In this document: positions 1,486 through 27,067 of the stretch, piece after piece
How the letters are laid out: each line of letters begins with the position of its first letter
How positions within the stretch are numbered: position 1 is the first letter of the stretch
Source of the DNA: an uncultured Poribacteria bacterium
Lineage (GTDB): Bacteria > Poribacteria > WGA-4E > WGA-3G
DNA: 64,000 bases
Reading direction: 5' to 3'
Assembly: GCA_958296135.2 (NCBI GenBank)
Contig: CATQHZ020000001.1
Span: 2,272,001 to 2,336,000, forward strand
Notes under the pieces: model-generated
Database searches by the model: none
Seen by the model: the letters and a program-made list of their open reading frames with translations, nothing else
What the model was told of the DNA's origin: nothing
Made by a program: the position numbers and the translations under genes

Positions 1486-4400
1486 CTACAGATTTAGGGA
1501 CGGCAACCCCTCAACAACTTTCACAGTCTCTAAACTGACGGTAATCACGGAACCGATGAGCTCCACAAGATACCGTGGCCGCTCCGCATCGTTCGGATCG
1601 TTCACAATCTGGCTCCGATCAAAGCACTTGACACGATACTGAGCCACCACCCACTCTAACGCCGAACGGTTCCCCAACCGATACTCCCACGCCTTCGCTG
1701 GAATCCCATCCAATGTGAGCGACGCATTGTATTTCAACTGCGTTTTGTCCTTGGACAACCGCATCCGTTCGACGCGTAAATTGAGCGGCACGCCCGGCTC
1801 GCTGATGAACTTGAGCGGATATTGCGGCTGCGCCTCGTAATTCACGTGAATCTCCGCCAACCGCGCCCCGGCATCCGCAAATGCCCAGAATTCCTCGGCG
1901 TAGGGAATGTGCGGCAAATCGCGCTTCAAGTCCGCTGCGTAACGTTCACGATACTCGGGCTGATGCAGGATGCCGTAGGTATAGTTGAAAATGTCCCACT
2001 TGGTGATGCTCTCGTCGCCGTACTGCGCACGGAAGTTTTGCAAAGCCCAATCGGTAATGTTTTCTCGGCGGTTGGTGCCATCCGCATCGTAAACGTAGAA
2101 GGGAAAACATTGTGAACCGCTTTGCGGCAGGATGTCGCAAATTTTGTTCGTCATGAGCGCGAACATAGGCCAGTCCTGCCCCGTTTTGAGCCAGATGACC
2201 TGGTTTTCTCTCTCTGTATCCGATGTAGGAAAGATAGAGGGAAATCTCCCAACCCGCTCGTTAAGCGTTCTGTCAAAATAGAGCACTGATTTTGTAAACG
2301 GACGATAGAGGGTTGTCCGAATGTTTTCGGGCGCGAATTCAATGGGCATCCCCTTTTTCAGTGCCGATTTCAGTTTGTCGCTCCACTTGATTTTCGTGCT
2401 GTCGGTATTCACGAAATTATCAACATCGACATCCTGAACTGTCCGCCGCTTCCATCTCCCCGCTTCTGCATGGTAGAAGTCTATCATCGCCGTTAGTTTT
2501 TCCGTGAGGGGCCGCAGGTTGAAGTTGTAAACCCATGCATCGCGACTCGTTGTAACACCGAGGCTATAGGTTTTAAAGAGCGTCTCAACCGTCCCGCCTT
2601 TGGCCCGCTTAGTCTCTTTATTCCCCATCGGAATGAATCCTGTCCATTCGGCGTGGAGTCCCTCCGTGAGCCAAGTATGTCGCGCGTCCGGCTGAAGCGT
2701 TTGCCACGGGACATTGCCGACATGCTCGGCTTGCGCGAGAAACTCAAATTTCTTGTTTTTGTTCCACGCGTCGTCGGTGCGGAAGTAAAAAATGCGTCCT
2801 GTCAAGCCCGGGAGAGCTCGCCTACCGGCAGGGTTTTTGACGAAGAGGTTGATGCTCACACCGACCTGAATCCCGAAGACGCTTGCATCAGAGACAAGTT
2901 TACCTCGCCGCGCGTTTCCACCGAGGTCTAGCAGATAGAGCGCGTCAAAGTCTTCGGTAAGATGCTTCCGCATGCCATCAAACGCCTTTGCGTCAAGAAA
3001 ACCGTTGTTCGTCACAAAGGCGACAATGCCCTCATCGCCAATCCGATCTGATGCCCATCGGAGTGCCTTGACATACAGATCGTAGAGTTTACTCTTGGAA
3101 GTCGCTTTGGAGTCCAAGGCATACGTTTCCTGCAGTCGCTTGTCCATCGCCGCGTATTGGCGGTTCTTGTTATTATCGTTTGCGTTCATCTGCCCGACGT
3201 TATAGGGCGGGTTGCCAATGACGACGAACATCGGCGATGCCTTCTGCTTCTCCACCCGCGCCGTGTTTTCCGCTGTTAACAACGACAACTGCCGGGCTTC
3301 CGCCAAGTCAAACGTATCCACGAGAGAGATGCCTTCAAACGGGAGATAGGTGCCGGTGGCACTATAAAACTCGTGCTCAATGTTGAGCGAGGCGATATAG
3401 TAGGGCAAGAGCAGCACCTCGTTGCACCAGAGTTCCGAACGGTATTTCGCCTCCAACTTGAAAGGTTCAATCTCACGCATGAGGCGAACGATGAAATTGC
3501 CCGTGCCGACAAACGGGTCGATGATGTGAACGCCCGCGTCGGAAAGGGAACGCTTGAATTCCGTTTTCAGCAGATGGTTGACGCTCTTCACCATGAAATC
3601 GACAATCGGCTGTGGCGTGTAAACGATGCCGTGCGTATCGGCGACTGCTGCAGAATCGCCCTGAAAAAACTGCTCGTAGACGGTATTCAGGAAGTGCTGT
3701 TTTTGCGAGAAATCGACGAGTGTCGCCGCTTCGCGTTCAATGGCACGGTAGAACCGGTCCAAGTTCTGGAGGAACGCATCGCGGCTAAACGCCTTGGAGG
3801 TGAGCGCGTCAATGACGTTCTCAATGTCGCGGGCGATAATATTCCGGCGCGTGAAGTCCGGATTCGCGAACACCGTACGGAAGGTGCGTTCTGTCAGGAG
3901 ATGTTGGATGAGCATCTCCTCCACCGTGGCTTCGGAGAGGTTCGGGTTAATCGCGTTCTGACAAAGGCGATAGAAGTCGGCGAAAGCGGTGCGGAACCGA
4001 GCGTTAGTGTGGAGCTGTTCCTGAATGAGTTCTGTCGCTTTCTGCTTCAATTCGGGGACGACGGTTTTGAAGTCGGCGACAGCGGCGTGCCACTCGGCGG
4101 CGTTTTCCCGTTCGTAAGCGAAGAACGCCTTCAGCACGGTAATGAGCGTCTCGCGTTCGGTAATATCCGCGTCAAGCACTTCGCGGCCGTGCTGATACAG
4201 AATCGCGCGTTCTGGCGTTTGGAAGAGGATGTTCTCTTGTGGATACCCTTCATCGAATTTCGTTTGGATGTCGGCGCGCAGATTGCCTTTAACCCCTTTT
4301 GCTTCCCACGTGCCGCGCGGGAGGCTGTGTGCGTCCAGCAACACACCATCAAGGCGAATGGGATTTCTGCCGGGGACGCGGCGCGTGTATTCACATACCA

Positions 4401-4557
4401 GCGTCCAATTCTGTCGGCGTGCGCATGCTTCAAGGAGTGCTTGAAAGGCAGCGCGCACGGCGGTTTCGTGGGTGACACCGTGTTGTCGATACCTATCCAA
4501 CGCGGCGTAGTATTCCGTTATCGCTTTATGGTTCGGTTTGAGGTTAAGTGTTGGCAT
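1486..4557 (-). CDS. Restriction-modification fusion: N-terminal PD-(D/E)XK-like domain, N6-adenine methyltransferase and Type ISP-like C-terminal specificity domain (no helicase)
   Basis: GIVYTP, motif I IIDPFVGTGNF, motif IV IGNPPY, TRD motifs SLGVTTSRDAWVYNF, YRPF, FNYTYGILH..YRERY..DLK..LPHIP; N-terminal RLDG..GTWEAK. Start at MPTLNLKP. Confidence 0.85.
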   Translation of the reverse strand: MPTLNLKPNHKAITEYYAALDRYRQHGVTHETAVRAAFQALLEACARRQNWTLVCEYTRRVPGRNPIRLDGVLLDAHSLPRGTWEAKGVKGNLRADIQTKFDEGYPQENILFQTPERAILYQHGREVLDADITERETLITVLKAFFAYERENAAEWHAAVADFKTVVPELKQKATELIQEQLHTNARFRTAFADFYRLCQNAINPNLSEATVEEMLIQHLLTERTFRTVFANPDFTRRNIIARDIENVIDALTSKAFSRDAFLQNLDRFYRAIEREAATLVDFSQKQHFLNTVYEQFFQGDSAAVADTHGIVYTPQPIVDFMVKSVNHLLKTEFKRSLSDAGVHIIDPFVGTGNFIVRLMREIEPFKLEAKYRSELWCNEVLLLPYYIASLNIEHEFYSATGTYLPFEGISLVDTFDLAEARQLSLLTAENTARVEKQKASPMFVVIGNPPYNVGQMNANDNNKNRQYAAMDKRLQETYALDSKATSKSKLYDLYVKALRWASDRIGDEGIVAFVTNNGFLDAKAFDGMRKHLTEDFDALYLLDLGGNARRGKLVSDASVFGIQVGVSINLFVKNPAGRRALPGLTGRIFYFRTDDAWNKNKKFEFLAQAEHVGNVPWQTLQPDARHTWLTEGLHAEWTGFIPMGNKETKRAKGGTVETLFKTYSLGVTTSRDAWVYNFNLRPLTEKLTAMIDFYHAEAGRWKRRTVQDVDVDNFVNTDSTKIKWSDKLKSALKKGMPIEFAPENIRTTLYRPFTKSVLYFDRTLNERVGRFPSIFPTSDTERENQVIWLKTGQDWPMFALMTNKICDILPQSGSQCFPFYVYDADGTNRRENITDWALQNFRAQYGDESITKWDIFNYTYGILHQPEYRERYAADLKRDLPHIPYAEEFWAFADAGARLAEIHVNYEAQPQYPLKFISEPGVPLNLRVERMRLSKDKTQLKYNASLTLDGIPAKAWEYRLGNRSALEWVVAQYRVKCFDRSQIVNDPNDAERPRYLVELIGSVITVSLETVKVVEGLPSLNL

Positions 4558-4564
4558 ATTTTTC

Positions 4565-5338
4565 CTATCCATCGTTCGGGAGTTGTAGCGTGGCGCGGAC
4601 CTCGCGGCGCACTTCGCTGCAGAGGCGCAGTGCATCCTCAACTTTCTCCGCCGTTGTGAGATAACCGGGATAGCGCGCATCCACTGCATACGGGGCAAAC
4701 GCCGAAAAGGCGATTTGCCACGTACCCCACTCGGGTTGCGATGGCACAATCAGAGCCAACAATGCGTTCAAATCATGCGTCCGAGGCATGGGGATGTTCG
4801 CCTCCTGCAGCCACGCCTTCAGGTATTTTTCGATACACTGCTGCGCGTCAAAACAAATACGATTGTATAAGTCTGGATCCAATTCCCGCCGCGCCAATTG
4901 CAGCATCTTCCAATCTGCTTCCGCGGTCTGCACCCATTCCAATGTCAATGGGTTCATAACCCCCGTCTCCTCCCACACAGGCATCAAGGTTTTCTCGGCG
5001 AGCTCCAACGAAGGCCAGACTGCCTCCGTATCGTAAAGCACATCGCCTTTCTCGAGCACCTCGCGCAGAAACCAATCGTTGTGCAAAACGCGATACGCTA
5101 TGTCCGCCCATGAGCGAACGTGCAAATCGAGGCGGAAGCGACGCGGGATGCGCTCGCTTATCTCAGCCCGATGCCGAGCCGCCTCCGACTTCAGACATGC
5201 CATCACAACAAGCAAATCTACATCCGACGCTTCTGTCGGCATGCCATACGCGTAGGAGCCGAAGAGGATAACTCGGAGCGGCGAACATTCGCGCACGATG
5301 TCATCACAGATAGCTTGAATCTCTTTCGCGGAAATCAT
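4565..5338 (-). CDS. MNT (minimal nucleotidyltransferase)-HEPN fusion, copy 1
   Basis: ILFGSYAYG..SDVDLLVV (MNT) followed by AQQCIEKYLKA..PRTHDL..RYP (HEPN). Confidence 0.85.
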   Translation of the reverse strand: MISAKEIQAICDDIVRECSPLRVILFGSYAYGMPTEASDVDLLVVMACLKSEAARHRAEISERIPRRFRLDLHVRSWADIAYRVLHNDWFLREVLEKGDVLYDTEAVWPSLELAEKTLMPVWEETGVMNPLTLEWVQTAEADWKMLQLARRELDPDLYNRICFDAQQCIEKYLKAWLQEANIPMPRTHDLNALLALIVPSQPEWGTWQIAFSAFAPYAVDARYPGYLTTAEKVEDALRLCSEVRREVRATLQLPNDG

Positions 5339-15292: not shown

Positions 15293-15865
15293 TTAGTCGG
15301 AAATTCTATCCAACAAGGTGTCCCTTAGCCGAGAGCGTTCGTCCCGCCAGTCTTGGGAGGGCTGTGCAGCTTTTCCGAACAGAGCATCCGCTAAACTCCG
15401 CTCCTCACTGCATCGCGCTGTTCTAACCTTGAAAAACAGGTTCCGGAAAGCACCACCGCCCCACTGATTGAGCCTTTTGTACTGTTGAGGATGAATGACA
15501 TTGCCACTGAACAACACCGGGCGACAGATGATTTCAAAATCATTTGTCTCTGGCACTAAATAATCCGCGAGTTTTACACCCCCAAGCAACTGTCGAATTC
15601 CTCTTGATGCTCTAATCTTACCGCTCTTGAGTTCAATCGGAACGATGAAGAGGATATTCTCAGGAGTGCTGATGAAAAAAAGGAGCCGGTCGCATCGCCT
15701 TCCCTCCATTTTACGGAATTCAAACTCATGTTCCACGAGGACTATAACGCGCTCATCGGGGATGTCAGTCATATCCACGGCACATCCTTCACCGCTGCAT
15801 GAGTCCGTCAGGCTATCTTCATCCACTCGTGTTCGGATTTCGGCAAGCACCTCACTCAATTTCAC
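15293..15865 (-). CDS. Hypothetical protein, possible PD-(D/E)XK nuclease-fold partner of the ATPase
   Basis: RRCDRLLF...IVPIELKSG pattern; overlaps the ATPase stop. Confidence 0.6.
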   Translation of the reverse strand: MKLSEVLAEIRTRVDEDSLTDSCSGEGCAVDMTDIPDERVIVLVEHEFEFRKMEGRRCDRLLFFISTPENILFIVPIELKSGKIRASRGIRQLLGGVKLADYLVPETNDFEIICRPVLFSGNVIHPQQYKRLNQWGGGAFRNLFFKVRTARCSEERSLADALFGKAAQPSQDWRDERSRLRDTLLDRISD

Positions 15866-17081
15866 GGCGTTCTCCTGTGATTTCAGCCAGCTGCTCCTGC
15901 AAATCTACCGACCGGTTATAGAGCGTCTCGGAAACGTCTCCGAAATCCCGCGGCTCTATACCGTCAATCCGGTCAAACGGAATTTCCTCCACCGGCTTAT
16001 CACGATGGAACCACCAGGTGCCAACTTCCTCTTTTAGGAGCCCGCTTGCCGATGTTGGTGCACTATCTTTGTGTCGATACACTTCCCCTTGGCGAATTAT
16101 ATTTCCGATTTGTTGGAGGAACCAGTAACTATGCGTCGTCACAATCACGCGGACCCCCACGCGAACCAAACGTGCAAGGGTTAGCGCAACTGCGGCTTGC
16201 GCACCGGGATGCAGGTGCGCTTCGGGTTCTTCGATAATGAGCAAATCACCTGGGCGAACGATACCACGCAGAAACAGCACTAACGGCGCGAGCTCGGATA
16301 CCATGGACGACGATTGGCTCATTCGCAGTGCCCGCGCTGTCTCATCGGGACGGTAGAGGAATTCCGGATATCCCTCTGCCACTGCATGCTTAACCTCTAT
16401 CTTTCCACGTAACACTTCTGTCTCCAGCAAGTTCGCAATGCCGTGCAGTTTGTCCGAACGCCCGTTATCCGTATCGTGGTTACCGACGAGTTGCTGCAGG
16501 AAATCGGTCGAAAACCCATTCGCCTTGACTGTCGCGGCACCCGTCTCGTGTGCCTGCAGCAGCCCGCGGCGGCCCGCTGGCAGGAAATAGGCCCGGCTAC
16601 GTTCGTCAAGTGACGCAGCCACTTTCAATTCCCACTGCGGCGGAAGATTGATAGAGCTCTCTACAGCGATACCAAGTTTGGCGGCGCGCAACCGAAAAGC
16701 GTAGCAAGTTTGACCTGCTTCGGAGCCCTCCAGCGTCACCTTCATTTCCTCGCAGCGAGACTTCGCGGTAAAGCGGATTAACTCCGAGACAGAGTCGATG
16801 TTGAAGCACCGTTTGAGTTCGTCTTCAAACGCCTCCGGATTCCCGAAGTTAGACCGCGCGCCGGCCATGTCTCCATTTTTCAGCGGTAAATGAAAGGTGC
16901 GGTGCAGTGCATAAATCAGCGCAGCGAGATAGGTTTTGCCGGTGTTGCTCTCCCCGACAAACACCGTCAGCGGACGCAACTCAATGTCCGCCTTCGCTAC
17001 CGGCCCAAAATTCTGGACAGCAATTTGGACATCTGGAGGTTTTGGGCGAACCGCGTCGCCCATGTCTTTGGTGTTTCGCAT
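15852..17081 (-). CDS. ABC-type/AAA_21 (AbiEii-like) ATPase
   Basis: QNFGPV, Walker A GESNTGKT, signature SQSSSMV, Walker B IIEEPEAHLHP, H-loop VTTHS. Confidence 0.88.
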   Translation of the reverse strand: MRNTKDMGDAVRPKPPDVQIAVQNFGPVAKADIELRPLTVFVGESNTGKTYLAALIYALHRTFHLPLKNGDMAGARSNFGNPEAFEDELKRCFNIDSVSELIRFTAKSRCEEMKVTLEGSEAGQTCYAFRLRAAKLGIAVESSINLPPQWELKVAASLDERSRAYFLPAGRRGLLQAHETGAATVKANGFSTDFLQQLVGNHDTDNGRSDKLHGIANLLETEVLRGKIEVKHAVAEGYPEFLYRPDETARALRMSQSSSMVSELAPLVLFLRGIVRPGDLLIIEEPEAHLHPGAQAAVALTLARLVRVGVRVIVTTHSYWFLQQIGNIIRQGEVYRHKDSAPTSASGLLKEEVGTWWFHRDKPVEEIPFDRIDGIEPRDFGDVSETLYNRSVDLQEQLAEITGERREIE

Positions 17082-17177: not shown

Positions 17178-20100
17178 CTAACGGGTTGCAGATTTCGCAC
17201 ATCGGAAACCGACGTAGGAATATGCGTATGTCGGCGCATACCCGGAGCGACTGGCGACACGCAGGCCCCAGGCTGAAATGCCCCACGAGCCCCCACGCAA
17301 CACGCGGGAACCTTTCACGCTAATGAAATTGGTGACAATATCTGTCACAGTGCCTCCGGCGAGTGGATTTCGCCGATGCGAACTTTTATAGAATCCGCCC
17401 TGATATGCATCAAGGCACCACTCCCTGACGTTACCCGCCATGTCATGTAAGCCGTAGTTGTTAGCCGGATAACTGCCAACGCGGGAGGTACCACCAAGAT
17501 TCGTCCCGTAGTTTGCCTTGCTGGGCCCAATAGAATTCCCCCAGGGGTATCTCTGTCCAACTGCTCCTCCGCGCGCGGCTTTCTCCCATTCCGCTTCTGT
17601 CGGAAGCCGTTTTCCAGCCCAGTGCGCGTAAGCCATTGCCGCATACCAACTCACATGGGTGACCGGATGCTCGCCTTTTCCAGCGGGATAATGATTCACA
17701 TTCCAATCGTTTAAGTAGTTGCCATTATGATACGCGAGAGGGATGCGCTGCTTTCCCCACTGAGGATTCGCATCAACGAACTTCTTATATTGCGCGTTTG
17801 TCACTTCATATTTGTCGATATAAAATGCATCAACGTAGACGGTATGCACGGGCTTTTCGTCAAATTCACCATTCCTGCTTCCCATCTGAAACCGGCCCGC
17901 AGGAATCAGTGCCATGTTGGCATCAAAGGAATTTGATGGCGGTGGAGTCACGTTAGACTCTTGTTGTCGCACCGTGTTTAACTCCTTCGCCTCTTGCAAA
18001 CGCGTCTGAATGCCAGTCCTTGGTTGCCGCGCTTCGCCAAGTTCCTTCTGCAAAGCCGCATTCTGATTCCTCAACGTCCGGTTTTGGCTGCGAAGCCGTT
18101 CTTCCCCTCGCGCCGATTTCTGCGAGGCAGATTTCAGCCCGCGGATTTCGGCATCCTTCTTAGCCAATTGGTTCTGTAATTTTCGCAGCTGGCCCTGCGT
18201 CTGCTGCTGTTCCTGCTGCAACACCCCAATTTGGAAGTCAGCCCCGTCCCTGGCTTTCAGTTGGAATAGGAACGCGATGAGAAAAGCAAGGAAAATCGCG
18301 CTTAATCCGCCAATAACGGTTATCCAACGTCGGAACGCTCTGTCCAATTGCTGCTGTAACGCGGTCTTTTCCTCCTGCAACGCTCCGTTCTGAATCCGAA
18401 TCTTAGCAGTTTCGGTATGCAACCCTCGGTTTTCGGTGCGAAGTTCCGCAGTCTCAGTTTCCAACCCTCGGTTTTCATTGCGAAGTTCCGCAGTCTTGGT
18501 TTGCAATTCTTCATTTTCATTGCGAAGTCCGCCGGTCGCCTCCAGCAAACGTTGCTGCGCACCGTCCAATTGCTTTCTTAAAGCCGTTTTCTCCGTTTGC
18601 AACGCTCCGTTTTGAGCCTGAAGTTCCGCAGTCTCAGTTTCCAACCCTCGGTTTTCATTGCGAAGTTCCGCAGTCTCGGTTTGCAATTCTTCATTTTCAT
18701 TGCGAAGTTCGCCGGTCGCCTTCAGCAAACGTTGCTGCGCACCGTCCAATTGCTGCTGTAAAGCGATTTTCTCCGTTTGCAACGCTCCGTTTTGGACGTG
18801 AAGTTGCTTAGTTTGAGTTTGCAACTCTTCGTTGTGGCGGCGAAGTTCCACAGTCTCGATTTGCAATTCTTCGTTTTCATTGCGAAGTTCGCCGGTCGCC
18901 TTCAACCAACGTTGCTGCGCACCGTCCAATTGCTTTCCTAAAGCGATTTTCTCCGTTTGCAACGCTCCGTTTCGAGCCTGAAGTTCCGCAGTCTCGGTTT
19001 GCAATTTTTCGTTTTCGCGGTGAAGTCTGCGAATTTTTTCAACGGTTACAAGACAAGCTTGAATAGCGTACAAAAGTCCGAGCGCAGGTTGATAGTCTGA
19101 ATCAATTGCTAGTGCGTTTTCGGCTCCCTCTTTCGCCTCATCCAATTTTCCCATTATCATGTAAGCGAGCCCAAGGCCGTGATAGGCCTCCTTAAAATCG
19201 GGTTTGAGGGAGATTGCCTCTCGAAACTCGCCAGTTGCCTCGCGGTATTGTCCCTTCTGCAGGTAAGTCGTTCCCTGTTCATAACACTTCTCATGCGGTG
19301 GTTTTGGCAAAACATCCTCTAACGGGGCAAGCAGGTCGATGGATGTTTTTGCACAAAAATCCTTCAGCCTTGCAGCGAGTTCCCGCACCTCCGCCGACAA
19401 CTTTTCAAGTTCGCCGAAAATGTCAGAGGTGTTGGGATTTTTAAAGTCATCGGCTGAAAAGAGGAGTCCATCTCCAGTGCTATCCTTAAACTGATTCCAA
19501 AGTTCCGGTTTTTCCGCGAGGCTTAGGAAGGAGAGATAGATAACCAATTCCGAAAAATAGTCCACCTTTTCGCCGGTTTGTCCGCCGCGGGCGATTCTTT
19601 GCGGGTGTTGATATTCCGGGAGGCCGACGATGCCGCTATCGGGATAACCACGGAGCGCGGGAACGAAGACGCTATCGTAGTCTATCAACTTGATTTCAAC
19701 CTGAGCACCGTTTCGGTTGAGCAGAATGTTGCCATCCTGCAGGTCACCGTGCGAGATTTCGCTAGCATGGAGCTCGGCAACCATTTTCTGAAATTCGGTT
19801 GCGACGGTTCTGAAGACATCGGCATCCTGCAGATTCTGCTCAATGAAAGCACGCAGCGAGTGCCCGTTCGCCCATTCCATGCGAGTGATGGGATATTTGG
19901 TGCCCCTCACCCAAATGCCTTCGGGAACGTATTCAAAATCGACAAAGTAAGGTAGGCCAACCTGTTTCAGGTACTCCGATATTTTTTGATACCGAATTTC
20001 AGCATCAACAACATCTTTAATCCAACATCGCAGCGCGAAAGTCTTAAAGCCCACGTTAACAGGATAGACTCTCGAAAAGCCACCGGACATCCCTTTTCCG

Positions 20101-20207
20101 GGCTTCCCGCCTTTAAGTTTTGGATCGAACACGCTGTAGGCAAAAGCATTCTTGACAGCGAATTCATAATCGGCGAAACTTGGCCAACGCATAACGGCTC
20201 CTATCAA
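17178..20207 (-). CDS. Ser/Thr kinase-like + TPR + coiled-coil repeats + TM + FGE-sulfatase/C-type-lectin-fold protein
   Basis: GGFSRVY, HGDLQDGN, LIDYD; TPRs; TM WITVIGGLSAIFLAFLIAFLF; IPAGRFQMGS, KRLPTEAEWEKAARGG, RVLRGGSW..GFRC. Start may be MRWPS, five codons in. Confidence 0.88.
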   Translation of the reverse strand: MIGAVMRWPSFADYEFAVKNAFAYSVFDPKLKGGKPGKGMSGGFSRVYPVNVGFKTFALRCWIKDVVDAEIRYQKISEYLKQVGLPYFVDFEYVPEGIWVRGTKYPITRMEWANGHSLRAFIEQNLQDADVFRTVATEFQKMVAELHASEISHGDLQDGNILLNRNGAQVEIKLIDYDSVFVPALRGYPDSGIVGLPEYQHPQRIARGGQTGEKVDYFSELVIYLSFLSLAEKPELWNQFKDSTGDGLLFSADDFKNPNTSDIFGELEKLSAEVRELAARLKDFCAKTSIDLLAPLEDVLPKPPHEKCYEQGTTYLQKGQYREATGEFREAISLKPDFKEAYHGLGLAYMIMGKLDEAKEGAENALAIDSDYQPALGLLYAIQACLVTVEKIRRLHRENEKLQTETAELQARNGALQTEKIALGKQLDGAQQRWLKATGELRNENEELQIETVELRRHNEELQTQTKQLHVQNGALQTEKIALQQQLDGAQQRLLKATGELRNENEELQTETAELRNENRGLETETAELQAQNGALQTEKTALRKQLDGAQQRLLEATGGLRNENEELQTKTAELRNENRGLETETAELRTENRGLHTETAKIRIQNGALQEEKTALQQQLDRAFRRWITVIGGLSAIFLAFLIAFLFQLKARDGADFQIGVLQQEQQQTQGQLRKLQNQLAKKDAEIRGLKSASQKSARGEERLRSQNRTLRNQNAALQKELGEARQPRTGIQTRLQEAKELNTVRQQESNVTPPPSNSFDANMALIPAGRFQMGSRNGEFDEKPVHTVYVDAFYIDKYEVTNAQYKKFVDANPQWGKQRIPLAYHNGNYLNDWNVNHYPAGKGEHPVTHVSWYAAMAYAHWAGKRLPTEAEWEKAARGGAVGQRYPWGNSIGPSKANYGTNLGGTSRVGSYPANNYGLHDMAGNVREWCLDAYQGGFYKSSHRRNPLAGGTVTDIVTNFISVKGSRVLRGGSWGISAWGLRVASRSGYAPTYAYSYVGFRCAKSATR
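18400..19015 (-). repeat. Intragenic 180-bp (60-aa) coiled-coil tandem repeat, about 3.3 units
   Basis: cgaagttcc recurs at 18481, 18661 and 18841; ELRNENEELQ..GALQTEK..QLDGAQQR repeated. Confidence 0.85.
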
Positions 20208-20322
20208 GGTGTTGTGTTATACCAAATTACGGTAATTCGTCCTCTCTCTGTAGTTCAATAACATTTGGAAACCTAGATGCCAGAACTTCAGACGCTCCCA
20301 GACTACTCATGTTAATTGGGTA

Positions 20323-21219
20323 TTACTCATCACGTTTTGTGATGAATCGGAAAATCCACCACAAAACGGCAAGGACAACCGCCCCGGGCAGCAAATAGAT
20401 GATGAGCCATCCGAGCATCCGCGCGAGGTTTGGTTTTTCAACCTCATCCGGAGGTTGTAATTTACCGGGCTCTTCTGCTACTGAAATGCACAGCAGCGTT
20501 ACGTCGTCGTTCACAAGAGGGATATCCTCAGTTTCACGTGCTGCCTCAACGAATTGTGCGAATTCCGCATCATCCGTTAGCGCAGTGAGTCGGTTGAGGG
20601 CAGCTCCTAATTGTCCCGCTTCTTCGTGGAGGATAATCCATTTCGCCAACGCATCGGTTGCCAAGATAAACAGATCTCCGGGTGCCGCTTTCCCTTCAAC
20701 AATCTGCGGTTTTGCGTAGTTTTCCTTTTCAAAACTAGCAAAAGCCTCGGGGTGATTGTTGAATCCCTCTGACTGCTTGATCGGATAACTCTCCACCAAT
20801 TGAGAGTTCTTAATCTGAAAGAGGCAACTATCGCCGACGATTCCTGCCTTCCATTCTGTCGTGTCTTTGTCAAACTCAAGTCCGATAAAGGTGGCAGCGG
20901 CCGGTTCGGATTTGGAGAGCCGGTCTATTGAGATAAACCTCTTCGTCTCCTGAACGATGGCAGTTACCTGCTTTAACCAGTCCCGTTGGAGAGGTGTTAT
21001 CCACGCTTGCCAATTTCCCTCATCCAAAGACAGCATGTCTTTTTGGCAGAAGTGGTTGACGAGGAGTTTTGCCCATTGTTTCGGAAAAAGGGAACGGGTC
21101 GCGCCATCTGCGACAGCGTAACGAGCGGCACCTTTGTTCATGGCCCAGGCATCTTGGCAATCATCAGGCGTTTCCGCTGCTTTATGCGTACTGAAACCTT
21201 TCGTACTTAGTTTGAGCAT
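20323..21219 (-). CDS. PP2C-family phosphatase (TerY-P/YegK-like) with a C-terminal TM anchor
   Basis: CQDA, AVADGA, VGDS, LATDAL, NDDVT motifs; hydrophobic C-terminus. Confidence 0.85.
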   Translation of the reverse strand: MLKLSTKGFSTHKAAETPDDCQDAWAMNKGAARYAVADGATRSLFPKQWAKLLVNHFCQKDMLSLDEGNWQAWITPLQRDWLKQVTAIVQETKRFISIDRLSKSEPAAATFIGLEFDKDTTEWKAGIVGDSCLFQIKNSQLVESYPIKQSEGFNNHPEAFASFEKENYAKPQIVEGKAAPGDLFILATDALAKWIILHEEAGQLGAALNRLTALTDDAEFAQFVEAARETEDIPLVNDDVTLLCISVAEEPGKLQPPDEVEKPNLARMLGWLIIYLLPGAVVLAVLWWIFRFITKRDE

Positions 21220-21229
21220 CAGATAATTC

Positions 21230-23233
21230 CTATAGGGCTACATTGCGAGGTGCTAAGTGTGAATCAAATAGGGTACTAAACACCATGATCTCCGTGGAGT
21301 TATAGGCAAAACACCGGCTACCACGTTGTAACGGAAAACCGTAGCAAGATTGAAACACAGGAAACAAAGGTGGAGGCAGAATGCTTGAGGAACGGAATAG
21401 GAAATCGGCACTGCTATCTCCGCTGAATTTCATCGTGCCGTGCGGGAAAACCACCTCAGGCCCACCGTTGGCAATGTGATTGTTGAAAACTAAAACATTG
21501 CCATCTGATGTGTGGAGATTCATGAGTTTTCTTACTGCCTCGCGTATCAACTCCGGCGAAGTGAGAACGCCTCCGGTGATGTTCATAACGATCGGTGGGA
21601 AACCATTAGGCCACTGAATACACCACTGCTGGACGATTTCCGCAGCGCGTTCAAATGCCGTATGCATCTGCGCGATGCCGCCCGCCTTGGGATGCAACCA
21701 AATTGGCACGTCCACTTCAATTTCAACGGTGCCACCCGCGCCATCCGGTAGCAACTTCGCGACCTTTTTAGTCGCAATCAGCGAGTTAACCACCTCCGAT
21801 ATCATGCCATCAATCAGGCACTCCACTTGTTCCCCATAGCCGATAACGGCGACATGACACCGATTTCTGATTTCCGTGCCAGTGTCGCACGCCAAACCGA
21901 GTTCGTGAATCATGCGACTCACGATAAGGGCTGCGACTTCTGCCTTCGTGCCGCTTTCCCACGGCTCGTTCATTGACTCCGATTGATCCACGAGAATGAC
22001 AAAACAACCGGGGTTCGGGCTACTTAGAGGCAAATTGCAATACCGTCCAACAGAGGCGGTCCTACGCCACCTATTGCGTTCGGATTCGGCGATGATTTCC
22101 AAAAGTTGGCGTGCAAGGTGATAGTTGGCATCAAAACTTAATGCCTTTTCGGCTGCGGCCTTCGCTTCTCTCAACTTGTCCATCTTGAAGTAAGTCAAAC
22201 CGAGGCCATAATACGCTTCTCTCAGATCTTCGTAAAGAAGGTTTATCGTCTTTCCAAACTTACCGACAGCTTCGTCATATCGGTTCCTATGCAGGCAAGT
22301 GAGGCCTTGGGTGTAATAGTCCTTTGCCTCCGGCGCGGTCTGCTTTTGCGGTAGAATCTCTTCTAGCGGTGACAGTTGTTCAATAGAGGTTTGCCTGCAA
22401 AAATGTTTCAGCGTATCCGCCAAATGTTTCACATCAGGCGACAGGTTCTCAAGTTCGCGGAAAATCGCAGATTGACTCGGGTTCCTAAAGTCTTCTGCCA
22501 AAAACAGCAACCCATCTCCGGTGTTCTCCTGAAACTGATTCCAGAGAGTAGGCTTTTCAGCGAGGCTCAGAAAACTGAGATAAATGACGAGTTCCGAGAA
22601 ATAGTCCACTTTTTCGCTGGCTTGCCCACCACCTACAATTCTTTGCGGATGCTGATATTCCGGAAGCCCGACAATGCTATCCGGCTGGCCTCGGAGTGCT
22701 GGAACGAACAGACTATCGTAGTCTATTAATTTGATTTCGACCTGGGCACCGTTCCTTTTGAGGAGCATGTTACCATCTTGCAAGTCACCGTGCGAAATCC
22801 GGTGAGCATGCAGCGTCTCGACCATTTGCTGAAACTCAGCCGCGACGGTTTTGAACACATCAGCATCCTCTAGATTGTTGACGATAAAGGCGCGGAGCGT
22901 TTTCCCCTCCGCCCATTCCATGCGAGTAGTGGAATACTTCTCCCCATCCACCAGGATGCCTTCGGGAACGTACTCAAAATCGACGAAGTAGGGTAACCGA
23001 ACCCGTTTCAGGTACTCCGATATTTCTTCATACCGACTTTTGGCATCAACGACATTCCGAGTCCAACACCGCAAAGCGAACTTTTTGGCATCCACTTCAA
23101 CGGGATAGACTCTCGAAAAGCCGCCGGACATCCCCTTACCGGGGGTGCCGCCACTAAACTTGGGGTCCAACACGCTGTAGGCAAAAGCCTGCATGACAGC
23201 GAATTCATAATCGGCGAAACTCGGCCACTGCAT
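21230..23233 (-). CDS. Ser/Thr kinase-like + TPR + vWA fusion protein
   Basis: Kinase domain paralogous to that of 17178-20207; TPRs; C-terminal vWA (LVDQSESM..NITGG) paralogous to 23320-24147. Confidence 0.85.
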   Translation of the reverse strand: MQWPSFADYEFAVMQAFAYSVLDPKFSGGTPGKGMSGGFSRVYPVEVDAKKFALRCWTRNVVDAKSRYEEISEYLKRVRLPYFVDFEYVPEGILVDGEKYSTTRMEWAEGKTLRAFIVNNLEDADVFKTVAAEFQQMVETLHAHRISHGDLQDGNMLLKRNGAQVEIKLIDYDSLFVPALRGQPDSIVGLPEYQHPQRIVGGGQASEKVDYFSELVIYLSFLSLAEKPTLWNQFQENTGDGLLFLAEDFRNPSQSAIFRELENLSPDVKHLADTLKHFCRQTSIEQLSPLEEILPQKQTAPEAKDYYTQGLTCLHRNRYDEAVGKFGKTINLLYEDLREAYYGLGLTYFKMDKLREAKAAAEKALSFDANYHLARQLLEIIAESERNRWRRTASVGRYCNLPLSSPNPGCFVILVDQSESMNEPWESGTKAEVAALIVSRMIHELGLACDTGTEIRNRCHVAVIGYGEQVECLIDGMISEVVNSLIATKKVAKLLPDGAGGTVEIEVDVPIWLHPKAGGIAQMHTAFERAAEIVQQWCIQWPNGFPPIVMNITGGVLTSPELIREAVRKLMNLHTSDGNVLVFNNHIANGGPEVVFPHGTMKFSGDSSADFLFRSSSILPPPLFPVFQSCYGFPLQRGSRCFAYNSTEIMVFSTLFDSHLAPRNVAL

Positions 23234-23319
23234 GATTACCTCGAAATTTAATGGCGTTAATCGTTTTCCTCAGTAGCGTTTGCGCAGATAGATATTGCGG
23301 AATGCGGGAAAGGCACCTG

Positions 23320-24147
23320 TTAAGAATTCCCTTCGCCTCCGGAACCTAAGCGATGCAAAGTGCCAAACTTTAGCATCTGGATAAGTTTAACTTCACAGAC
23401 GTTATACCCAAAACACCGTGCATCGGGTTGCGGGTCGAAACCTTGGCTTTTTGCCTCTCGGCGCAAGGGCTCGGGTAGAACACTAGAAATGGCAAAGAGA
23501 AATTCGGCCAAGATATCGTCGGCAAATGGTGCGGGGTTGTGTGGAAAAATCACCTCATTATTACGTCCACCGGCAATGTGAACGTTGAATACTAGCACGT
23601 TACCATCTTCTGTTTGGATGTTCATCGTCTTCTCTGCAGCATCTATCGTTAAACCGGGCTGGTTAGCGGCTCCATCTGTGATGTTAAACACAACAGGTGG
23701 AAAGTTGTTAGGGTGCTCGCTACACCACTTTTCGGCAACTTCCGCGGCATATTCAAATGCCGTATGCATGGGGGTGCCATTATCCGCCATCGGCTGTAGC
23801 CAAATCGGTATGTCCGTTTCAATTTCAACGACACCTCCCGCGCCATCCGGTAGCAACCTCGTGCCCTTTTGGGTTGCGATCGGTGAGAGATACACCTCCG
23901 ATATCATGCCATCAATCAGGCACTCTACCTGGTTACCGTAACCGATAACGGATACGTGACACCGATCTTTGATTTCCGTGCTTGTGTCACACGCCAAACC
24001 GAGTTCGCGAATCATGCGACTCACGATAAGGGCTGCGATTTCTGCCTTCGTCCCAGTTTCCCACTGTCCGTTCATAGAATAAGACTGGTCCACGAGAATA
24101 ACGAAACAACCGGGATGAGGTGTTCCGATAGGAGCGTTGTATGCCAT
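23320..24147 (-). CDS. vWA domain protein (TerY-like)
   Basis: MIDAS LVDQSYSM, NGTPM..AF, PPVVFNITDG; RBS GGAGG before ATG 24147. Confidence 0.85.
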   Translation of the reverse strand: MAYNAPIGTPHPGCFVILVDQSYSMNGQWETGTKAEIAALIVSRMIRELGLACDTSTEIKDRCHVSVIGYGNQVECLIDGMISEVYLSPIATQKGTRLLPDGAGGVVEIETDIPIWLQPMADNGTPMHTAFEYAAEVAEKWCSEHPNNFPPVVFNITDGAANQPGLTIDAAEKTMNIQTEDGNVLVFNVHIAGGRNNEVIFPHNPAPFADDILAEFLFAISSVLPEPLRREAKSQGFDPQPDARCFGYNVCEVKLIQMLKFGTLHRLGSGGEGNS

Positions 24148-24177
24148 GCTAATCCTCCCATTTTTGTTGATACGCCA

Positions 24178-24206
24178 ATAATACCTAAATCTGCAACAAA
24201 TTGCAA
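24178..24206 (-). promoter_or_regulatory. Putative sigma70 promoter of the vWA-kinase-PP2C operon
   Basis: TTGCAA-17 bp-TATTAT. Confidence 0.5.
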
Positions 24207-24231
24207 GAAAAATCAACACCGCTGTCAAAGT

Positions 24232-24975
24232 TCAACCAATCCCCAACGCCTCACGAACCGCCTCGCGCACCTCAGTAGCGATTTTTGCCGCAGCAATCGC
24301 AGATTCCCCAGGATACCGGAAATCCACCGCATGCGTCGTAAATGCCGAAAAATCTGCGGCCCACGCACGCCACGCAGGACGCATCGACACAACTAGATGG
24401 AGCAGTTCCACCAAATCGTGCGTCCTCGGAACAGGGAGATTCGCATCCTGAAGCCACGCCTTCAGATACTTCTCAATACACTGCTGCGCGTTGAAACACA
24501 CCGAATTATGCCTCGGTGTGGGGGCCCGCTGAAGCCAGTCTATATTCTCGTAATTCTCCTCAGCCTTTTCTACATACTCTAATGTCAACGGATTCATCAG
24601 GGTTCCTGCCTCTGTATCGCGCAGTTCGCCAGCGGTTTCCAAGGCATTCTTGGCAAAACCACCCGAATCGTAAAGCACGTCTCCCTTCTCAAGGATTTCT
24701 CGGAGAAACCAGTCGTTGTGCGACACGCGATAGGCTATCTCTGCCGGCGACCGGACGAGCAAATCCATCGGAAAGCGACGCGGCAGACGCTGCCGCATCT
24801 CTACGGCCTTGTCACGCTGCTCCGATGCAGGAATCGCCATAACAACGAGTAGATCGACATCCGAATCCTCCCGCGGTGTGCCATACGCATAGGAACCGAA
24901 GAGAATAATTTGGAGCGGCGCGAACTCGCGAACGATGACATCACAAATCGCTTGAATCTCTTTTTGCGAAACCAT
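24232..24975 (-). CDS. MNT-HEPN fusion, divergent 4th paralog
   Basis: ILFGSYAYG..DSDVDLL; AQQCIEKYLKAWLQ..PRTHDL; RBS AAGGAGG. Confidence 0.85.
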   Translation of the reverse strand: MVSQKEIQAICDVIVREFAPLQIILFGSYAYGTPREDSDVDLLVVMAIPASEQRDKAVEMRQRLPRRFPMDLLVRSPAEIAYRVSHNDWFLREILEKGDVLYDSGGFAKNALETAGELRDTEAGTLMNPLTLEYVEKAEENYENIDWLQRAPTPRHNSVCFNAQQCIEKYLKAWLQDANLPVPRTHDLVELLHLVVSMRPAWRAWAADFSAFTTHAVDFRYPGESAIAAAKIATEVREAVREALGIG

Positions 24976-25001
24976 GGACGCTGCCTCCTTAACGGTGCAC
25001 A

Positions 25002-25709
25002 TCACGATGCAGATCTTTCGTGCGCCTTCCGCTCTTTTTCAAGTAGATCTACTAGGTAGAGAGCCCCCCAGTCCGAAGGATCCCGCATCAGCGCGTCAAC
25101 GAGTGCCTGTTCCGCCGCGTCAAACTGCTTGCGCTTCATGTAGACCATGGCGATAGCGGAGTAGCCGCTCGCGAAGTCCGGCTTATTGCGCGTTAACTGC
25201 TGGAAATGGTGTAACGCCTGATCCAAGTCTTCCAAGTAGAAATAGGCGTTCCCGATGAATAGATTCAGGTCCACCTTCGTCATCCCCAGTTCGCGCGACT
25301 TCAACCACGCTTGGAGCGCGGCTTCGTATTCGCACAGCCCGAAGTGAACGCGACCGAGGAGATAGTAGTAACTTTCGGGTTCCTCGCACCGCGCCATCGA
25401 GGGGATGAGGACCTCTCGCGCCTCCTCGTATTTATCCAATTTGATGTAGACATCGGCGAGGTTAATACGCACCTCTGTTAAACCCGCATCCAAGGCGAGT
25501 GCCTGCCGCAAGTGGAAAACGGCTTTTTCCTTCTTGTCCATTAGGATGTAGGTTGCGCCGAGGTTGTTATGCGCCGCCGCAGAATTCGGTTCAAGCTCAA
25601 GGGCTTTCTGAAAATCCTTGACACCTTTGGCGTATTCCCCGCGCTGGTTATGCAGGTACCCGCGAGTTGTATACACATCCTTGGGCATTTTTCGTTTTCG
25701 ACGTGCCAT
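25002..25709 (-). CDS. Tetratricopeptide repeat protein
   Basis: Multiple TPR consensus units (AHNNLGATY, YYYLLGRVHF, FIGNAYF). Confidence 0.88.
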   Translation of the reverse strand: MARRKRKMPKDVYTTRGYLHNQRGEYAKGVKDFQKALELEPNSAAAHNNLGATYILMDKKEKAVFHLRQALALDAGLTEVRINLADVYIKLDKYEEAREVLIPSMARCEEPESYYYLLGRVHFGLCEYEAALQAWLKSRELGMTKVDLNLFIGNAYFYLEDLDQALHHFQQLTRNKPDFASGYSAIAMVYMKRKQFDAAEQALVDALMRDPSDWGALYLVDLLEKERKAHERSAS

Positions 25710-26299: not shown

Positions 26300-27067
26300 T
26301 TGAGCGACGTTCCGAAAACACACCCGCGCTACCTCTCGTTAACGCTGCGAGATACCATCGTGGAAGGCGTTGACCGCGGTATTACCTCCATCCACGGACT
26401 CATCGCGCACGGGCGCGGCGAGGCGTTTGACTACCTCATCGGCGAGAAGACGCAGCCGTTCGCCCTTGAGGCAATCCGTGCAGCCGCAGCGATGCTTCTC
26501 TCGGCAGAACATCCTATCATCTCTGTCAACGGCAACGTGGCAGCGTTAGTCCCAGACGCGTTGATTAGATTGGGACGACTGCTCAACGCGCCGCTGGAAG
26601 TAAACATCTTTCACACGGACGGTGCGCGGGAAATCGCCATCCAACAGCATCTGCGCAAGCACGGTGCATCGGAGGTGCTTATGCCCACCACCGAAGCGCA
26701 ACTCGCCTATATTGACTCCAACCGGAAGTTTGTGCATCCGAAGGGCATTTTCAAAGCGGATGTCATTTTCGTACCGCTTGAAGATGGCGACAGGTGCGAA
26801 GCCCTGCGGAAAATGGGGAAGGATGTCGTCACCATCGATCTGAATCCGATGTCGCGCACGGCGAAGCAGGCGAGTGTAACGATTGTGGATAACGTCGTGC
26901 GGGCATTGCCGTTGTTGCGTAAAGAGATAGAGAATTCTCTCCCGGTAGGCGCGCGTTGCGAGCGCGCTCTTGTGAACTATAGCAACACAGAAGTGCTACG
27001 AAAAGCACTGCAGCACATCAGCAGGAGAAACCTCCCGCGTCTCGATGAAACTCCCGCGTCCCGATGA
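26300..27067 (+). CDS. 4-phosphopantoate--beta-alanine ligase (archaeal-type phosphopantothenate synthetase)
   Basis: HPRY.SL, GLIAHGRGEAFDYLIGE.T, SVNGN.AAL, LEVN.F, VPLEDGDR.EAL, IDLNP.SRT, DNV.RA; TTG start. Confidence 0.92.
   Translation: MSDVPKTHPRYLSLTLRDTIVEGVDRGITSIHGLIAHGRGEAFDYLIGEKTQPFALEAIRAAAAMLLSAEHPIISVNGNVAALVPDALIRLGRLLNAPLEVNIFHTDGAREIAIQQHLRKHGASEVLMPTTEAQLAYIDSNRKFVHPKGIFKADVIFVPLEDGDRCEALRKMGKDVVTIDLNPMSRTAKQASVTIVDNVVRALPLLRKEIENSLPVGARCERALVNYSNTEVLRKALQHISRRNLPRLDETPASR

Follow-up and report, generated by a model that had tools for sequence, protein, structure and literature searches.

A probable TerY-P locus with a lineage-specific kinase-vWA fusion in an uncultured Poribacteria bacterium

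Introduction

What kind of system is encoded when a protein kinase and a von Willebrand factor A (vWA) domain each occur twice in one bacterial gene cluster, once fused to each other, next to a PP2C-type phosphatase, and when the second kinase appears to be joined across the membrane to a domain of the formylglycine-generating enzyme (FGE) fold? The question is raised by four genes in a 64,000-nt stretch of DNA, called the window throughout, from an uncultured Poribacteria bacterium (GenBank assembly GCA_958296135.2, contig CATQHZ020000001.1, positions 2,272,001 to 2,336,000). A first-pass annotation, made from the sequence alone, had regarded the cluster as an undescribed phosphorylation switch of the TerY-P type. 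In the passages of the CoCoNuT paper that describe it (PMC11090510), TerY-P groups a TerY-like vWA protein with a PP2C-like enzyme and a Ser/Thr kinase; the form with an OB-fused kinase is there a stand-alone anti-phage system, attributed to Gao et al. 2020, and a metal-sensing phosphorylation switch is given as the proposal of Anantharaman et al. 2012. Beyond that hypothesized switch, no mechanism for TerY-P was found in the portions of the texts on the family that we draw on.

Here, we characterize the four genes and their relatives. The core of the locus is a catalogued anti-phage module, not an undescribed system, and the kinase-vWA fusion is a new, lineage-specific variant with a narrow distribution. 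We favor the reading that the locus elaborates the TerY-P triad into a four-gene form specific to its lineage, and we give this reading, including the mechanism proposed below, a probability of about 0.6.

Results

The minus strand carries four head-to-tail open reading frames (ORFs) between positions 17178 and 24228 of the window. The genes, the parts of the two kinase proteins with their predicted transmembrane (TM) segment, and a tandem repeat are as follows (all coordinates refer to the window).

23320-24147, minus strand: vWA1, a free TerY-like vWA protein, 275 aa from its ATG; PADLOC TerY 4e-53
21230-23233, minus strand: kinase-TPR-vWA fusion, 667 aa, no TM segment
about 22334-23233, minus strand: kinase part of the fusion
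about 22079-22333, minus strand: TPR part of the fusion
about 21254-22036, minus strand: vWA part of the fusion
20323-21219, minus strand: PP2C with a predicted C-terminal tail anchor, 298 aa; PP2C_2 8.9e-8, PADLOC PP2C 4e-28
17178-20192, minus strand: receptor-type kinase-TPR-helix-TM-helix-FGE protein, 1004 aa
19293-20192, minus strand: kinase part of the receptor-type protein
about 19053-19280, minus strand: its TPR part
about 18333-19040, minus strand: its predicted cytoplasmic helix
18258-18326, minus strand: its predicted TM segment
about 17973-18233, minus strand: its predicted outer helix
17193-17918, minus strand: its FGE-sulfatase-fold domain
18440-19004, minus strand: 180-nt tandem repeat, 3.1 copies with 88% matches, within the cytoplasmic helical stalk (Tandem Repeats Finder)

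Four co-directional genes with the domain make-ups that the first-pass annotation had described are therefore present, as ORFs, Pfam and PADLOC matches agree. The vWA1 ORF spans 23320-24228 and is open up to a TTG at 24228; its start is likely the ATG at 24147, since residue 28 of the ORF is where the TerY match sets in and the relatives share a starting M-x-Y motif. Pfam VWA_2 and VWA fall narrowly below their cut-offs in this protein; PP2C_2 exceeds its own in the phosphatase. The ORF of the receptor-type kinase spans 17178-20207, with the ATG at 20192 as its likely start. Pfam families match the fusion (Pkinase 2.9e-14, TPR_1 1.5e-7, VWA_2 2.6e-4) and the receptor-type kinase (Pkinase 1.2e-10, TPR_2 8.4e-11 and FGE-sulfatase 3.1e-64 over the full model), and several coiled-coil families match the latter across residues ~386-628. 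NCBIfam gave nothing above model cut-off for any protein of the operon. The two kinase-TPR parts are 68% identical to each other and the two vWA parts 59%, and the two kinases are the only members of their family in their own genome. The 180-nt repeat in the stalk fits the spread in length of the orthologues (870-994 aa). The annotation had also placed the four genes under one promoter. A -35/-10-like site does exist upstream of vWA1 (24206-24178), but such sites are no commoner in the region than in shuffled sequence (10 vs. 7.9 +/- 2.5), and a single promoter is accordingly not supported; terminator-like sites likewise occur at the shuffle level (15 vs. 13.1 +/- 3.6). A listing of sequencing runs that match the 7-kb stretch includes no RNA run, and its four strong DNA matches are from a single sample, which may be that of the source.

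All three PADLOC models for TerY-P match strongly: TerY and PP2C with the E-values listed above (the PP2C model covers residues 10-248), and STK_OB at 3.2e-64 in the fusion (residues 1-301) and at 8.7e-64 in the receptor-type kinase (model positions 1-292 only). In the fusion, a second TerY match covers residues 404-648 (8.1e-39). Positions of the STK_OB model beyond ~301 of 562 remain unmatched, so that the kinase part is recognized and the OB part is not; no OB/S1 fold was found at the C-terminus of either kinase, where Pfam gives TPR plus vWA or TPR plus FGE-sulfatase instead. Kinases that bear S1/OB domains are nevertheless 65-66% identical to the window kinase domain (P0093, P0096, P0099, P0100, P0117), and the S1 domain was confirmed in P0121. 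The locus also has a TerY vWA with a complete metal ion-dependent adhesion site (MIDAS), an adjacent PP2C gene, a kinase with the HGDLQxGN and DYD motifs, and the gene order vWA-PP2C-kinase. On these features, it very probably belongs to the TerY-P family. The annotation's picture of a TerY-P-type vWA/PP2C/kinase module amid defence genes is thus borne out by PADLOC and by matches of the flanking genes, and for the same reason its word "undescribed" does not hold for the core, which all three TerY-P models match and which is already catalogued.

Compared with reference TerY-P, the window shares the three protein families and the co-directional core order vWA-PP2C-kinase. It differs in having a TPR-helix-TM-helix-FGE-like kinase end in place of OB, a tail-anchored PP2C and the additional kinase-TPR-vWA gene. 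The vWA/PP2C/kinase triad that accompanies McrBC-type nuclease genes is similar in its variable C-terminal kinase module, and duplicated TerY-like vWA domains are noted there; its kinase ends in a zinc ribbon, whereas the window lacks both zinc ribbon and McrBC-type nucleases, and the passages on that triad do not describe a kinase-vWA fusion. In Deinococcus radiodurans, DRA0331-0334 likewise combine vWA, Ser/Thr kinase and PP2C in one operon but, in the parts of the source that describe it, include FHA-domain components, and the likeness is one of description, not of sequence (bioRxiv 10.64898/2026.01.23.701218). The operon had further been likened to E. coli yegL/K/I. By annotation, E. coli YegI, PphC (YegK) and YegL are a kinase, a PP2C-type phosphatase and a vWA protein encoded together, in another gene order and with yegJ interposed. 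As a type for the window operon the E. coli genes were rejected: BLASTP of the window kinase against YegI gave a best E-value of 2.4, and the TerY, PP2C and STK_OB models miss the three E. coli proteins (E <= 0.001). On sequence grounds, the yegI/pphC/yegL locus is an architectural analogue only.

The feature that sets the window apart is the kinase-vWA fusion. In a collection of 5.8 billion proteins we found 14 other fusion clusters, 663-678 aa long and 81-84% identical to the window protein over the whole length. A TerY-P module is present in 30 of the 176 species-representative genomes of the phylum, and none of these 176 genomes other than the window's own has kinase and vWA matches in one frame. 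Conservation of the four genes together, on which the earlier description depended, therefore holds within a narrow clade, as the 14 other clusters indicate, but extends to no other genome among the remaining 175 phylum representatives. A scan of Joint Genome Institute (JGI) metagenomes with the fusion alignment returned 41 loci with a best identity of 36% and no close relatives. Three of these rows looked like fusions. The two that were checked, L115 and L117, were rejected, since their matches span separate adjacent ORFs; the third, L119, has a match span and scores identical to those of L117. Four of the fusion clusters pair with a kinase-FGE cluster on contigs of equal size (208551, 274030, 205212 and 147507), which indicates, if indirectly, that the same pairing of fusion and kinase-FGE protein exists in other assemblies.

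The origin of the extra gene can be followed by comparison with a genome of the same genus (G002), whose island holds the TPR, MNT-HEPN, vWA and PP2C genes, a 911-aa kinase-FGE gene, and the AAA/p190 pair twice. Since this island has the plain triad, the extra gene of the window represents an insertion into a conserved frame; it sits between the vWA and PP2C genes and leaves the core order intact. We built a tree of the kinase domains by a short search, with support from the Shimodaira-Hasegawa-like approximate likelihood ratio test (SH-aLRT), and rooted it on two rows with long branches. All 15 fusion rows group together in it (support 100); their sister group is formed by the 33 kinase-FGE rows (support 97), and the two groups join with a support of 97. 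This topology points to a single duplication of the resident kinase within the lineage. The kinases of the G002 type nest inside the kinase-FGE clade, and hence the fusion was probably lost in the G002 line. Of the three parts of the fusion proteins, the kinase is the most conserved (mean pairwise identity 0.926 within the clade), ahead of the TPR (0.887) and the vWA (0.813). A comparison of the DNA upstream of vWA1 with the linker of the fusion, as a possible trace of the fusion event, gave no informative similarity outside the coding start. Two other arrangements were seen in the clade: two tandem 286-aa TerY genes before PP2C in G004 (L016 6667-8504), and in G015 (L018 3592-5256) a 554-aa protein, 2 kb past the kinase, in which TerY is fused to a helical region that has a TM segment. 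Duplication and refusion of the vWA domain therefore recur in this clade.

We next consider the MIDAS site, whose columns were read from an alignment of 55 TerY-type vWA sequences. vWA1 keeps all five MIDAS residues (D20, S22, S24, T125 and D158). The DxSxS motif is invariant (55/55), and the MIDAS Thr and Asp are each present in 54 of the 55 sequences, the sole exception being the fused copy, so that both are kept in all 54 free TerY proteins. In the fused vWA, DxSxS is kept, Thr is replaced by Ala and Asp by Gly, and two of the five residues are thus lost. The first-pass annotation had noticed the loss of the last Asp (ITGG vs. ITDG in vWA1), correctly; the Thr is gone as well. All 15 fusion proteins read NITGG or NITSG, with Gly or Ser at the Asp position, and Ala takes the Thr position in 14 of them and Ser in the remaining one. 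Because the change runs through all fusion proteins, the loss is old and fixed. With three of five MIDAS ligands left, the fused copy is unlikely to hold a metal in the way TerY does.

A physical pairing of kinase and TerY is also suggested by structure prediction. A complex was modeled from the 385 aa of the kinase-TPR part (48-row alignment) and the 275 aa of vWA1 (55-row alignment). The ipSAE score of the pair was 0.67 (0.68, 0.67 and 0.62 in separate runs) vs. 0.27 for the best control; of 80 solved complexes, 58 pass the same mark, as do 2 of 110 mismatched pairs, a calibration that is only rough for alignments of our own making. The runs share at least 67% of their contacts, and partner values of pLDDT (the predicted score in the local distance difference test) are at least 84. 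On the kinase side, the modeled interface comprises residues 2-20, 34-41 (the glycine-rich loop), 59 and 94; on the vWA1 side, residues 44-56 and 97-111 with a few C-terminal ones. The N-terminal extension of the kinase that takes part in it is a hallmark of the family, with P4 invariant in 29 and in 48 rows. We know of no solved kinase-vWA complex whose memory could explain this result. The model supports binding, in which TerY would dock on the N-lobe of the kinase.

Hydropathy gives one strong segment each in the receptor-type kinase (residues 623-645 of 1004, Kyte-Doolittle 2.57) and in the C-terminal tail of PP2C (~268-292 of 298, 2.44, corresponding to ~20344-20418), and no strong segment in vWA1 or the fusion. 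The prediction of a TM segment in PP2C and in one kinase is thereby confirmed, as is the description of that kinase as a putative single-pass protein with an FGE-fold domain on the far side, to which Pfam also testifies. Residues preceding the kinase TM segment are more positive than those following it, a bias in keeping with a kinase in the cytoplasm and an FGE-like domain outside it. A full-length AlphaFold2 (AF2) model of the receptor-type kinase was of low confidence (mean pLDDT 53.7, FGE domain below 50); only its secondary structure was used, which places helices at residues 368-465, 478-644, 654-721 and 723-740, that is, on either side of the TM segment.

The ectodomain matches solved structures of the FGE family at about 1e-32, the best being SUMF2 (1y4j, 1.8e-32). 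SUMF2 is pFGE, the non-catalytic paralogue of FGE that is without the FGE cysteine pair. When the ectodomain is aligned to a bacterial FGE (6muj), the Cys-x4-Cys stretch of the latter, presumably the catalytic pair of FGE, is replaced by a shorter, Cys-free stretch. Judged by these residues, the ectodomain is no FGE-type enzyme. It resembles SUMF2, its best PDB match, in the missing cysteine pair and differs in its setting, as the presumed extracytoplasmic end of a membrane kinase. FGE-sulfatase domains are numerous in these bacteria, with more than 100 among the matches listed, across 41 genomes, and the kinase has probably acquired a binding module that was abundant locally. Our search for literature on Poribacteria and FGE-sulfatase together found nothing. 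As far as the literature we found goes, the all-membrane form of TerY-P with an FGE ectodomain in this clade is new.

How unusual the remaining features are was judged against the wider family. The window kinase domain finds 7007 cluster representatives at E <= 0.001 in a library of 1.84 billion proteins; the beta3 and DYD columns were counted over 154 sequences, namely the window and the best representatives, and gene arrangements over 80 genomic loci from many phyla, including Cyanobacteria, Bacteroidota, Bacillota, Chloroflexota, Verrucomicrobiota and Planctomycetota. Both window kinases carry FALRCW, HGDLQDGN and DYD; the Lys of the beta3 strand (VAIK) is replaced by Arg, and the catalytic Asp, the Asn and the metal-binding Asp are kept. 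The beta3 column holds Arg in 129, Lys in 20 and a gap in 5 of the 154 sequences, and Arg in 88, Lys in 11 and a gap in one of 100 kinase ORFs of the 80 loci. DYD is present in 151 of the 154, HGDLQxGN is the rule in the family, and H148, G149, D150, Q152, N155, D171 and D173 are invariant over 29 rows. The Arg that the first-pass annotation had pointed out is therefore real, along with the kept motifs, but it is the family norm, and we discarded it as a peculiarity of the operon. In a kinase atlas, a "DYD" family, 60% of which is without the VAIK Lys, is filed among seven pseudokinase families (bioRxiv 10.1101/2025.01.12.632604). We take it from the motif name to be the family of the window kinases; the likeness lies in the DYD motif and the frequent loss of the VAIK Lys, not in compared sequences, and the passages of the atlas on this family tie it to neither vWA nor PP2C partners.

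The order vWA-PP2C-kinase is found in 64 of the 80 loci, most of the others being cut contigs, and in all eight Poribacteria relatives examined. Among the 64 triads, 33 have a hydrophobic segment behind the kinase domain (27 of 57 outside Poribacteria), and 15 have one in PP2C (8 of 57 outside Poribacteria); in the eight Poribacteria relatives, the same PP2C tail anchor is predicted in all and the kinase TM in seven. Neither the membrane-anchored phosphatase nor the membrane-spanning kinase is thus as exceptional as had been thought. Duplication is not rare either, as two adjacent kinase ORFs occur in 22 of the 80 loci, mostly in Bacteroidota and in a few cases as split genes, but a kinase-vWA fusion is absent from all 80, so that only this part of the claim of unusual duplicated and fused domains stands. 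The tandem family kinases of the Bacteroidota type are a different and widespread way of doubling the kinase, with the order vWA-PP2C-kinase (~335-360 aa)-kinase (~470-730 aa) in L048-L051, L054, L056, L058-L060, L064-L066, L076, L077, L081 and L083. PP2C varies too: in L037-L039, L041, L042 and L044 (Thiotrichaceae, Cyanobacteria and others), it has 397-545 aa, a central TM segment and an additional region at the C-terminus.

The C-terminal modules of 76 representative kinases include S1, TPR, WD40, FGE-sulfatase (4/76), TIR, CAP12-TIR, ankyrin, zinc ribbon with two TM segments, and MshEN; a vWA domain was present in none of the 76. Among 69 locus kinases, FGE-sulfatase occurs in three, all from Poribacteria. 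Similarly, the "Proteo1" receptor kinases of the atlas share the layout of kinase, TM and extracytoplasmic domain, and the excerpted text names FGE-sulfatase as a kinase-linked domain.

The operon is flanked on both sides by genes of the same strand, the TPR and MNT-HEPN genes upstream and the ATPase with its partner downstream.

25002-25709, minus strand: TPR protein, 235 aa (TPR families, Pfam)
24232-25005, minus strand: fused MNT-HEPN protein, 257 aa; NTP_transf_2 3.8e-11 and HEPN 1.8e-14
15852-17081, minus strand: AAA_15 ATPase; AAA_15 2.4e-20, PD-T4-4_A 4e-33, PDC-M47A 2.5e-29
15293-15865, minus strand: 190-aa partner of the ATPase; no Pfam match, weak PDC-M47B 2.8e-5

The TPR and MNT-HEPN genes overlap by 4 nt, and both are 83-89% identical and syntenic in G002, where the AAA_15/p190 pair is present as two tandem copies (L011 12576-16379). 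The AAA_15 ATPase and the 190-aa protein are a candidate two-gene defence pair. With regard to the flanks as first described, Pfam confirms MNT-HEPN and the ATPase, but the label of nuclease for the 190-aa neighbor is unsupported, its only match being the weak one to PDC-M47B.

Discussion

The findings above change the picture of the family as well as that of the locus. Arg at beta3 is the norm, about half of the examined triads have a membrane-spanning kinase, and the kinase C-terminus is a freely exchanged sensor slot in which the FGE fold is one option. We infer the topology, signaling and output of the system as follows. The catalytic domains of the receptor-type kinase and of PP2C would face the cytoplasm at the membrane, and the FGE-like domain in the periplasm would be the variable sensor, in the slot taken elsewhere by OB, zinc ribbon, WD40 or TPR. 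A ligand on the outside could alter kinase activity through a dimeric helical stalk. TerY, bound to the N-terminal extension and the glycine-rich loop, may be a substrate of the kinase, its regulator or gate, or both, and PP2C would reset the switch. The soluble kinase-pseudo-vWA protein would then be a cis-tethered kinase-TerY pair without metal binding, conceivably acting as an amplifier, adaptor, built-in pseudo-partner, relay, buffer or decoy.

Several considerations weigh against this elaborated TerY-P switch. The anti-phage activity of TerY-P is known to us through citing texts only, the CoCoNuT paper (PMC11090510) and a commentary, and Gao et al. 2020 or Anantharaman et al. 2012 may already describe kinases bearing TM or FGE domains. 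The OB domain of the reference kinase is absent here, and the sensing logic may differ for that reason. Both kinases are without the beta3 Lys (Arg) and the catalytic-loop Lys (HGDLQ), and phosphotransfer is hence not assured. The topology of the receptor-type kinase and PP2C is predicted from hydropathy and flanking charges, the full-length AF2 model of the former is poor, and the score of the modeled complex is the confidence of the predictor itself on alignments that we made. Finally, the FGE fusion could reflect the local abundance of the domain, not a specific ligand.

A bolder joint reading would make the locus an outside-in immune receptor, and as a whole we regard it as rather unlikely. 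In it, the non-catalytic FGE ectodomain would sense an event at the envelope, for instance the adsorption of a phage or a molecule of phage or host in the periplasm; the long dimeric stalk would signal to a TerY-gated, DYD-type kinase; and the MIDAS-dead fusion, as a kinase-TerY pair locked in cis, would relay or buffer the signal in the cytoplasm. The ectodomain could also be imagined to read a sponge-derived or cell-surface glycan or peptide, with the switch adjusting the physiology of a symbiont and having no part in phage defence. In keeping with such envelope or host sensing, the relatives are recorded as Candidatus Poribacteria, and one DNA data set that contains a small share of the stretch is labeled as a sponge metagenome; domains of the FGE-sulfatase fold have multiplied greatly in these genomes; a 6173-aa fn3/cadherin protein is encoded in the window as well; and a C-terminal TM segment with an extracellular domain is, in the part of the atlas that treats the layout, usual for bacterial receptor kinases (bioRxiv 10.1101/2025.01.12.632604). 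We nonetheless think it improbable. The kinase, PP2C and vWA proteins score strongly with defence-database models for TerY-P, the locus is patchy (the 30 of 176 phylum genomes given above), it lies between MNT-HEPN and an AAA_15 pair that match defence models, and GC content is 0.495-0.506 across 18-24 kb of the window vs. 0.53-0.56 on either side. Flanks, patchy distribution and lower GC argue for defence, and together with the model scores they are marks of a mobile defence island rather than of core signaling.

If the kinase domains were pseudokinases, they would be nucleotide- or TerY-binding scaffolds or switches, with PP2C acting on other substrates or as a regulator, a possibility that is compatible with the other readings. 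The replacements beta3 Lys to Arg, HRD Arg to Gly and catalytic-loop Lys to Gln speak for it, as do the filing of the "DYD" family in the relevant passages of the atlas (bioRxiv 10.1101/2025.01.12.632604) and the predicted TerY contact, which covers the glycine-rich loop. Set against this, the family hardly varies at the catalytic Asp (HGD), at the Asn or at the metal-binding Asp of DYD (motif present in 151/154), Arg and Lys alternate in one column (129 and 20), suggesting a conserved positive charge with one function, and the linkage to PP2C in 64 of 80 loci would be hard to explain without a phosphorylation cycle. We therefore hold inactive kinases to be distinctly unlikely. Decay is less plausible by far. 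A fusion that was a decaying, functionless by-product of tandem duplication would account for the damaged MIDAS site, the absence of the fusion from G002 and all other species representatives of the phylum, and the fastest evolution in the vWA part. The frame is nevertheless intact in 15 of 15 clusters, the kinase motifs are invariant with a mean kinase identity of 0.926, the same two MIDAS positions are changed in all 15 and not randomly degraded, and the clade has diversified, implying long retention, all of which makes such a remnant highly improbable.

The locus is narrow in its distribution and is still a useful lead to the mechanism of TerY-P. That kinase and vWA occur naturally as one protein is a Rosetta-stone argument for a physical partnership of kinase and TerY, and the docking surface modeled on the kinase N-lobe is specific, conserved in the family and open to mutation. 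Should this docking mode be true, it would be valid for TerY-P generally, and TerY would be a regulatory subunit, more than a mere substrate.

Other Genes of the Window

Further genes of the window include two giant eukaryote-like repeat proteins. A 6173-aa ORF (41058-59579, minus strand) has fn3 and cadherin repeats (fn3 3.4e-137 and 4.6e-129 in its two halves) and a lamin-tail domain near its C-terminus, and is followed by a 1227-aa lamin-tail-domain protein (37143-40826). A 1087-aa defence-type protein (1486-4749, minus strand) combines a Type ISP restriction-modification C-terminal specificity domain (6.9e-97) with a coupler domain. Just upstream of the island lies a 255-aa ORF (26300-27067, plus strand), which by the appearance of its sequence alone is a candidate archaeal-type phosphopantothenate synthetase.

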